This document shows positions 5,201 through 6,176 of a stretch of 6,176 nt of DNA, in pieces (within the stretch, counting starts at the first letter, position 1; the number at the start of each line of letters is the position of its first letter). Origin of the DNA: a virus (lineage: Duplodnaviria > Heunggongvirae > Uroviricota > Caudoviricetes); the IMG/VR virus record IMGVR_UViG_2534682092_000012; one strand, written 5' to 3'. The notes beneath the pieces were generated by a model. It was given only the letters and a program-made list of their open reading frames with translations, ran no database searches and was not told the origin of the DNA. The position numbers and the translations under genes were made by a program.

Positions 5201-6176
5201 ATGGATTATTTATCAGAAGTGTTAAAAATCATTGAAGGTGCAACAAAGGCAAATGCTTCGATGGCTAGTAATTATGCTGGGTTGCTGGCAGATAAGCTCG
5301 AACAAAAAGGGGAGGTCAAGCAAGCCAGAATGATAAGAGAAAGGTTGCTTAGAGCTCCCCAGGCGTTGGCAGGAGCTCAAAGGGCTGGAGGTGGGATATC
5401 TCTGGGCTCATTACCGGTAGATATTGATAGTCGACTCAACACTGTTGATGTCAGTTATCCTAAATTAGACAGTTCAGAGATTTTTCTGCCTGCAGCAATC
5501 AGTACCCGTGTTGAAGAGTTTATCACTAATGTTCAACGTTATGATGAGTTTGTTAAAGCTGATGCAGCATTGCCGAGTCGTATGCTCGTGTATGGAAAGC
5601 CAGGAACAGGTAAGACTATGTTATCTAAGTACATCGCTACCCGCTTAGATTTTCCACTTCTTACAGTGCGTTGCGATACTTTGATTAGTAGTTTATTGGG
5701 ACAAACCAGCAAAAATCTTAGACAGGTTTTCGATTATGTAATGCAGAGGCCATCAGTGCTTTTTTTAGACGAATTTGATGCTTTAGCTGGAGCAAGAGGT
5801 AATGAGAGAGATATAGGTGAGCTTCAGCGAGTTGTCATTTCACTATTGCAGAATATGGATGCGGCATCAGAGGATACGGTAATTATTGCCTCAACTAACC
5901 ATGAGCAACTTCTGGATCCTGCAATCTGGAGGCGATTTAGCTTCAGAATTCCAATGCCTCTGCCTGACATACATCAGAGAGAGTTAATTTGGAAAAATCG
6001 TTTAAAGAATATGATATGTAGCGATCTAGATTTAAGTGATTTATCAAGAAAATCGGAGGGATTATCCGGAGCAATAATTGAACAGGTGAGCTTGGATGCA
6101 CGTAGGGATGCAGTTATTGAAGGTGCAAGTGTGATAAATCACCATAAATTGTATAGGCGTTTGTATCTTGCGCAAT
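5201..6176 (+). CDS. Classic-clade AAA+ ATPase (PF00004-like), 3'-truncated by the window edge; about 125-aa helical N-terminal domain of unknown function followed by the ATPase core
   Basis: Own translation from the ATG at 5201 (in-frame TGA at 5198-5200): 325 codons to the window end with no stop. Walker A LVYGKPGTGKT (GKPGTGKT at 5594-5617), Walker B VLFLDEFD (5756-5779), sensor-1 and second region of homology IIASTNHEQLLDPAIWRRFSFRIPMP, and a lid-like C-terminal segment (SEGLSGAIIEQVSLDARRDA). About 40% GC, with frequent AGA/AGG/ATA codons. Absent from the ORF track because it has no stop in the window. Confidence 0.85.
   Translation, partial: MDYLSEVLKIIEGATKANASMASNYAGLLADKLEQKGEVKQARMIRERLLRAPQALAGAQRAGGGISLGSLPVDIDSRLNTVDVSYPKLDSSEIFLPAAISTRVEEFITNVQRYDEFVKADAALPSRMLVYGKPGTGKTMLSKYIATRLDFPLLTVRCDTLISSLLGQTSKNLRQVFDYVMQRPSVLFLDEFDALAGARGNERDIGELQRVVISLLQNMDAASEDTVIIASTNHEQLLDPAIWRRFSFRIPMPLPDIHQRELIWKNRLKNMICSDLDLSDLSRKSEGLSGAIIEQVSLDARRDAVIEGASVINHHKLYRRLYLAQ

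Follow-up and report, generated by a model that had tools for sequence, protein, structure and literature searches.

The window analyzed here, a stretch of 6,176 nucleotides, makes up the whole of contig AQAP01000296.1 in the draft assembly GCA_000358335.2 of E. coli P0304777.5. Its backbone is that of a Rac-like lambdoid E. coli prophage (Table 1). After the replication module of this prophage (O-like, DnaC-like, DUF1627 and DUF977 genes), which is where a preliminary description made from the letters alone had placed it, an open frame of 325 codons without a stop occupies positions 5201-6176 on the plus strand. Its ATG lies directly 3' of an in-frame TGA (5198-5200) and 6 nt behind a Shine-Dalgarno-like sequence, and RefSeq/PGAP place the start at the same ATG in genomes that are 100% identical here (position 12302 in locus L001 of strain 602354, whose coordinates equal those of the window plus 7101). 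Translation confirmed the frame together with the Walker A, Walker B and second region of homology motifs, all of which had been reported previously. The catalytic residues are intact (K138/T139, D190/E191, N233 and R244/R245), and the protein is likely an active ATPase, a prediction that rests on the invariance of the Walker A and Walker B catalytic residues, N233 and R244/R245 among 38 homologues. The gene had also been called hidden. It is indeed absent from the open reading frame listing of the window, because frames running off the end are excluded from that listing, but it is not hidden otherwise: a gene caller also returns it at 5201-6176, and the GenBank record gives its product as 'AAA domain family protein, partial'.

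Table 1 Features of the 6,176-nt window, in window coordinates; residue numbers refer to IetA.
Feature	Position	Strand	Basis or remark
DUF1391 gene	first in window order		
LexA-type repressor	635-1351	-	
Cro	1401-1616		
YdaT	1613-2038		
O-like HTH protein	2061-3023		
DnaC-like YdaV	3030-3776		
DUF1627	3799-4560		
DUF977/LygF	4576-5007		
Left end of low-GC cassette	4972-5200	+	homology breakpoint with IetAS-less relatives; AT-rich leader
Shine-Dalgarno-like GGGAG	5190-5194	+	6 nt 5' of the ietA ATG; seen directly in the sequence
ietA ('iteA'), codons 1-325 of 384 and first base of codon 326	5201-6176	+	translation; NF042959, PDLC02196; annotated as iteA in five complete genomes at 100% nucleotide identity
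N-terminal helical bundle of IetA, residues 1-60	5201-5380	+	AlphaFold2 prediction; very high conservation in the IteA clade
Walker A GKPGTGKT, residues 132-139	5594-5617	+	translation; P134-T139 core invariant, position 133 varies (38 homologues)
Pore-loop-1 position S-S-L-L-G, residues 163-167	5687-5701	+	non-aromatic; S163, S164, L166 and G167 invariant, L165 at least 90% (38 homologues)
Walker B LFLDEFD, residues 187-193	5759-5779	+	L187 and D190-D193 invariant, 188 and 189 vary slightly (38 homologues)
Sensor 1 and second region of homology STNHEQLLDPAIWRRFSFRI, residues 231-250	5891-5950	+	Arg fingers R244 and R245; N233, R244 and R245 invariant (38 homologues)

Profile searches identified the gene. 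Pfam returned the AAA domain for the 325-aa fragment (E 2.6e-30) and no domain besides it. Against the NCBIfam equivalog NF042959, 'anti-phage ATPase IteA' (IteA/IteS is the NCBI spelling of IetA/IetS), the fragment scored 484 bits (E 2.8e-145) over model positions 1-323 of 367, which falls below the curated cut-off of 510 bits only because 59 residues are missing; the full-length 384-aa IetA of relatives that are identical over the shared part scored 526.6 bits. The PADLOC IetA model PDLC02196 matched the fragment at 1.1e-130 and the full-length protein at 9e-143. Moreover, window positions 4900-6176 were found at 100% identity in five complete E. coli genomes, where RefSeq annotates iteA. 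These results indicate that window 5201-6176 is, with near certainty, the 5' 85% of ietA, which encodes the AAA+ ATPase in the two-gene IetAS system, and that IetA is a classic-clade AAA+ ATPase. No finding speaks against this identity. In the preliminary description IetAS had been mentioned as an analogy only and the system was thought to be possibly unclassified. By NF042959, PADLOC and RefSeq the analogy is an identification, and the system is a known one, already named by NCBIfam/PGAP, RefSeq and PADLOC; the gene is real but ordinary.

The source contig lacks the final 59 ietA codons and the entire ietS gene, both of which can be followed in relatives. In L001, ietA goes on for 59 codons more, to 384 aa, and overlaps by 26 nt a gene on the same strand annotated as 'S8 family anti-phage peptidase IteS' (754 aa). 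The L001 protein reached 1039 bits with NF042956 IteS, for which the cut-off is 900, and 8.5e-300 with the PADLOC IetS model (PDLC02197), and IetS of the relatives has the catalytic triad D273/H303/S505 and the oxyanion residue N402. The same arrangement, an identical ietA adjoined by an S8 peptidase gene, is found at a further locus (L003) and in phage ON470595, while the source contig stops before ietS. An 80%-identical pair lies 3' of DUF977 in a prophage whose replication genes are of the lambda O/P type, and less similar pairs occur in an Aeromonas island and a Burkholderia chromosome; the overlapping A-then-S order is kept in every one. The overlap suggests translational coupling, which may set the A:S ratio. 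Of 5,426 complete E. coli genomes, 78 carry the cassette in full, as does one isolated phage, vB_EcoS-683R6, where the downstream neighbors differ. The earlier proposal that the ATPase was one half of an ATPase-protease module with its partner beyond position 6176 is thus borne out in the identical relatives: a reader with the sequence alone correctly foresaw the missing protease partner. Genes cut at the edge of short draft contigs can be resolved through relatives that are identical over the shared stretch.

The base composition of ietA sets it apart from the backbone. GC and GC3 are 41.3% and 32.9% for ietA versus 51.7% and 52.3% for the five upstream backbone genes. Among the Arg codons, AGA/AGG account for 15 of 26 versus 17 of 95, and among the Ile codons ATA accounts for 7 of 23 versus 6 of 54; these counts agree with the contrast in GC and codon usage described before. 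GC starts dropping near window 4950-5000, and homology to IetAS-less prophages stops at 4970-4972, within the final 12 codons of DUF977/lygF (gene end at 5007). The ietA leader that follows (5008-5200, 193 nt) is AT-rich with a GC of 35%, and one block of it is partly conserved at distant ietA loci; a scan of the equivalent L001 stretch found no consensus sigma-70 promoter. Homology resumes about 4.0 kb on, at a block of about 35 nt common to three different backbones, and the DNA between the two junctions has a GC of 39% versus 50-55% on both flanks. Because its final ~350 nt also occur in ~680 genomes without IetAS, the IetAS-specific insert comes to ~3.6 kb. A hairpin with a 15-bp stem lies 3' of ietS (L001 15703-15736) and was scored by the scan as a minus-strand terminator; its stem is near-palindromic, and TTTGTG comes next on the plus strand. 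An Rfam search of the cassette gave just a sub-threshold chance match on this hairpin. The ietAS pair is a low-GC moron of ~3.6-4.0 kb, ending in what is predicted to be a strong hairpin terminator. At the level of sequence, the low-GC cassette with its mapped junctions supports the separate horizontal acquisition that had been proposed.

The cassette is flanked by the DUF977 (lygF) gene on one side and by the DUF968/RusA/Q region on the other. Related prophages have other cargo in this slot from DUF977 to DUF968, including QueH with hok, DUF4014 with hokD, Ead/Ea22, DUF551, methyltransferases and a Peptidase_U49 (Lit-like) gene. The Cro of the window occurs in over 25,000 blocks of the collection; none of the 10 places listed had IetAS. 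The slot after the replication module therefore varies among relatives, in keeping with the variable cargo slot envisaged in the preliminary description, and the locus is a textbook defence moron in that position.

We modeled IetA with AlphaFold2 on an alignment of 38 homologues (mean pLDDT 79). The N-terminal part is predicted to form helices 2-17, 19-35, 39-51 and 53-60 (pLDDT 56-79), followed by a low-confidence linker of ~20-35 aa (pLDDT below 50 at residues 55-68) with a short strand at a conserved TVDVS motif; the AAA alpha/beta and lid domains occupy residues ~98-330, and a confidently predicted three-helix module lies C-terminally at residues 336-372, beyond the window. What had been described as a 125-aa N-terminal domain is instead a bundle of ~60 aa, the TVDVS-containing linker and an AAA domain that starts at about residue 98. 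The accompanying statement that this part carries no recognized motif stands, since Pfam gave no match even at E 10 for the isolated N-terminal 97 aa, nor for the C-terminal 71 aa. In a Foldseek search with the model, the nearest solved folds were PAN, Rpt, FtsH and p97, that is, generic classic-clade AAA, and nothing informative was returned for the two end modules; a PDB sequence search gave no IetA or IetS entry. The C-terminal module could be a protein- or DNA-binding module serving, for example, autoregulation.

Published work on homologues offers a mode of action for the pair. IetAS is an anti-phage system according to Gao et al. 2020, as cited in 10.1101/2022.08.27.505566 and PMC13069673. 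On pTiC58, IetS is the toxin and IetA the antitoxin, as stated in PMC5006074 and PMC13069673 (citing Yamamoto 2009), and SgiAT, the homologous pair of SGI1, showed the same toxin/antitoxin roles when tested directly in E. coli (PMC5006074). IetAS of B. cereus acts by abortive infection and becomes toxic upon co-expression of yosG, a gene of phage SPbeta (10.1101/2022.08.27.505566); defence requires the protease activity, and an ietA mutant could not be made (PMC13069673). E. coli IetAS is typically carried on prophages, and the ECOR52 system alone gave limited protection against a panel of 29 phages and synergized with Zorya II against T3 (10.1101/2022.08.21.504612). By analogy with these homologues, IetS would be a latent toxic protease, which IetA, probably a hexameric classic-clade AAA+ machine working with ATP, would keep harmless as an antitoxin in the uninfected lysogen. 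A protein of an infecting phage would lift this restraint, directly or indirectly, and proteolysis by IetS would halt the cell before progeny are made, an abortive infection that would protect sister lysogens and the prophage with them. We regard this mechanism as evenly balanced between right and wrong. Against it, the toxin-antitoxin data stem from the distant pTiC58 and SGI1 homologues, the pore loop (L-L-G versus F-M-G) and the extra N- and C-terminal modules set E. coli-type IetA apart, ECOR52 IetAS gives limited protection when alone, and no promoter was detected in the leader. Taken as one, the identity as IetA together with the proposed mechanism is the best explanation of the locus, and a probable one.

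At the level of the gene, it is practically out of the question that ietA encodes an AAA+ ATPase for housekeeping or for phage replication or morphogenesis, be it FtsH-like, a loader of the DnaC type or a remodeler of the TRIP13 type; profile scores, neighbors and patchy presence already refute this reading. The weak matches to FtsH, PAN, Cdc48 and TRIP13 models, and one phage record that mislabels the gene as 'cell division protein FtsH', would fit such an enzyme, but the best scores are 124 bits for PAN (cut-off 500), 102 for FtsH (600) and 116 for Cdc48 (803), IetA has neither a transmembrane nor an M41 protease part, the DnaC-like loader of the prophage is a separate gene (3030-3776), and ietA is missing from most related prophages. 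The match to a well-characterized ATPase of this kind, which the preliminary description had raised against its own proposal, is accordingly not found. A TRIP13/Pch2-type CBASS remodeler was also rejected, with 1.7e-16 for TRIP13 versus 1e-130 for IetA and no HORMA or cyclase gene nearby in L001. A distinctly unlikely alternative is that ietA is a pseudogene in the source strain P0304777.5, broken shortly beyond the window by, for example, an insertion sequence. The gene is cut at codon 325 because the contig ends there, at an assembly edge. It speaks for a genuine break that a whole draft contig stops within a gene present once in most genomes, and that in the sibling isolate P0304777.8 a 3,761-bp contig carries the remaining 57 IetA residues in an ORF of their own; the assembly break thus recurs near the same place in both isolates. 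However, the contig equals intact ietA at 100% to its last base with no insertion-sequence end visible, and iteA is without a pseudogene flag in every match listed among the 78 complete cassette-bearing genomes. In many other draft assemblies ietA breaks at assorted positions, which fits poor assembly of an AT-rich, prophage-embedded region, and an assembly gap is more likely than an insertion. A query for the continuation contig with the C-terminal 65 aa of IetA returned a single, unrelated fragment.

At the level of the pair, the main rival is a two-component ATP-dependent protease made up of IetA and IetS and comparable to PAN-20S or ClpXP. IetA would unfold selected phage or host proteins and thread them into IetS, defence would positively require both activities, and IetA would be more than an inhibitor. 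The placement of IetA in the classic unfoldase clade, with PAN, Rpt, FtsH and p97 as its best structural and sequence neighbors, the constant pairing and overlap of the two genes and the conservation of all ATPase residues are compatible with such a machine. We nevertheless consider it unlikely, as pore-loop-1 is without the aromatic residue of threading motors and its L-L-G is near-invariant, IetS of homologues is toxic alone and neutralized by IetA (PMC5006074; PMC13069673), and no docking motif or structure is known, a sequence search of the PDB having given none for IetA or IetS. Like its counterparts on pTiC58 and SGI1, the pair might instead serve mainly as an addiction or stabilization module, maintaining the prophage by post-segregational killing, with defence against phages a side effect or missing in this allele; this we hold to be quite improbable. 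Its background is that IetAS was first described as a plasmid-stability toxin-antitoxin and that SgiAT promotes SGI1 maintenance, as given in PMC13069673 and PMC5006074, and the limited anti-phage activity of the ECOR52 system alone (10.1101/2022.08.21.504612) would agree with it. Yet experiments in at least two hosts show the family to be anti-phage (10.1101/2022.08.27.505566; PMC13069673), related prophages carry other exclusion-type cargo in the slot, including hok and the Peptidase_U49 (Lit-like) gene, and stabilization and defence can coexist. Restraint of a latent IetS by IetA until a phage cue arrives is the reading that we prefer for the pair.

As a tentative and rather doubtful extension of this preferred reading, E. 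coli-type IetA may go beyond the passive antitoxin role seen on pTiC58 and act as a non-threading clamp or sensor that would hold IetS, read the phage cue through its end modules and perhaps repress its own leader. The near-invariant, non-aromatic S-L-L-G pore loop, the very highly conserved N-terminal bundle of 60 aa and the additional, confidently predicted C-terminal three-helix module distinguish this subtype from the founding pair and would jointly fit this idea. If it is true, the prophage-borne allele would be a handy model for working out the mechanism of IetAS. The E. coli prophage allele is in any case a reasonable experimental subject, because IetAS is still without a molecular mechanism (as of April 2026; PMC13069673) or a solved structure.

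We compared the pair with known systems. The classic-clade unfoldases (PAN/Rpt, FtsH, Cdc48/p97) share the AAA fold and catalytic motifs with IetA over residues ~98-330. In contrast to them, IetA has a single AAA module with N- and C-terminal modules of its own and a non-aromatic pore loop, lacks a fused protease or transmembrane part and scores far below their cut-offs. The ietHAS system (Liu-DS4; NAR 2026, gkag308), for which anti-phage activity is also published (PMC13069673), shares the A and S components and the toxin-antitoxin-like behavior, but adds an SNF2-type helicase, whereas the relatives examined here have no flanking helicase gene (DUF977 on the 5' side, the hairpin and non-coding DNA on the 3' side). 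IetA/IetS of Agrobacterium pTiC58 and SgiAT of SGI1 have the same architecture, an AAA ATPase followed by an S8 peptidase. For pTiC58 we took as IetAS the only AAA plus S8 pair found in the 49-kb stretch examined, and the PADLOC IetA and IetS models match both of its proteins. The pTiC58 IetA is 36% identical to the window-type IetA over 211 aa, in the AAA core only (E 1e-42), and the two IetS proteins are 25% identical over 247 aa (E 4e-5). The pTiC58 IetA is shorter (328 aa), is without the C-terminal three-helix module, has an N-terminus that does not align and reads K-F-M-G at the pore-loop position where the E. coli type has S-L-L-G; its context is a plasmid stability locus, while that of the window type is prophage cargo. 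Judged by these alignments, the E. coli type is a distinct subtype of the broad IetAS family, distant from the pTiC58 pair. The closest counterpart is the IteA/IteS type of E. coli and other gammaproteobacteria (the family of Gao et al. 2020; NF042959/NF042956; PDLC02196/PDLC02197), to which the window gene belongs in both family and subtype. The A-then-S order, the overlap and the sizes of 384 and 754 aa are the same, and both equivalog cut-offs are passed in the identical relatives. Nothing of substance differs between the two; the window gene is just cut at codon 325, with ietS out of view.

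The window's immunity region is unlike its counterpart in IetAS-carrying complete genomes, and is similar to that of prophages lacking IetAS, at ~93% identity. Over positions 1607-6176, the window was compared with L001, the locus that carries ietA and ietS in the complete genome of E. coli strain 602354. This comparison gave 20 differences, 18 of which fell within 1662-1741, and this clustering places a recombination joint within ydaT. The exact mosaic of the window had no match among the complete E. coli genomes of the searched collection. The draft contig AQAP01000296.1 (E. 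coli P0304777.5) corresponds to window 1-6176 in full, and prophage genes are cut at its 5' and 3' ends alike. Because the window is thus the entire contig, with both ends inside prophage genes, any feature at its edge reflects assembly truncation.

Features of the window and related loci
Feature	Position	Strand	Remark
Immunity region	window 532-1741		LexA-type repressor, Cro, start of ydaT
73-aa ORF	window 5004-5225	+	called by one gene caller
Leader block CGTATCAAAAATCTCAAAATGCGTTACGA	window 5102-5150		upstream of ietA
Unannotated AT-rich stretch, ~350 nt	L001 15711-16065 (window-equivalent ~8610-8964)		3' of ietS terminator
~35-nt block ACGTCAGCCTGAACAACTGGCACCTGCTGCGCC	L001 ~16065-16100
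Alternative cargo in DUF977-to-DUF968 slot	L011 17171-17653; L006/L007 13763-14842		related prophages, same Cro

The 73-aa ORF reaches across from DUF977 to ietA, overlapping the stop codon of the one and the start of the other. It is labelled 'kinase (Fragment)' in the isolated phage record ON470595, is left unannotated by PGAP, gave no Pfam match and is probably spurious. The leader block is partly kept 5' of ietA in a Klebsiella-type prophage, an Aeromonas locus and a Burkholderia locus. The window's copy contains an imperfect inverted repeat that pairs 5107-5118 with 5138-5149 (10 of 12 positions complementary). A promoter or operator role is possible for the block, though the repeat is missing from an 80%-identical ietA locus.

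For ietS, PGAP placed the start at an ATG at L001 13431, just after an AGGAG and with a 26-nt overlap with ietA. The start in the phage record lies at L001 13479, 16 codons further downstream and past the ietA stop, and the match to the NCBIfam IetS model opens at residue 15. Given this later start and the model opening, the ietS start is left between the two candidates. The names are spelled IetA/IetS in the literature and in PADLOC but IteA/IteS (iteA, iteS) in NCBI models and gene symbols, so that a text search by either spelling misses records under the other.

Downstream of ietS, the AT-rich stretch matched no Rfam family. Some 680 complete E. coli genomes without IetAS, one of them a K-12 derivative, also carry it, at 85-93% identity; it is a widespread prophage intergenic piece. 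The adjoining ~35-nt block is common to three otherwise unlike prophage backbones and lies precisely at the points where these part or come together again; it resembles a mosaic recombination joint. The other cargo of the DUF977-to-DUF968 slot, the variable position after the replication genes, includes a weak Peptidase_U49 (Lit-like) match, QueH with a hok toxin, Ead/Ea22 and methyltransferases, and likely represents exclusion or accessory genes.
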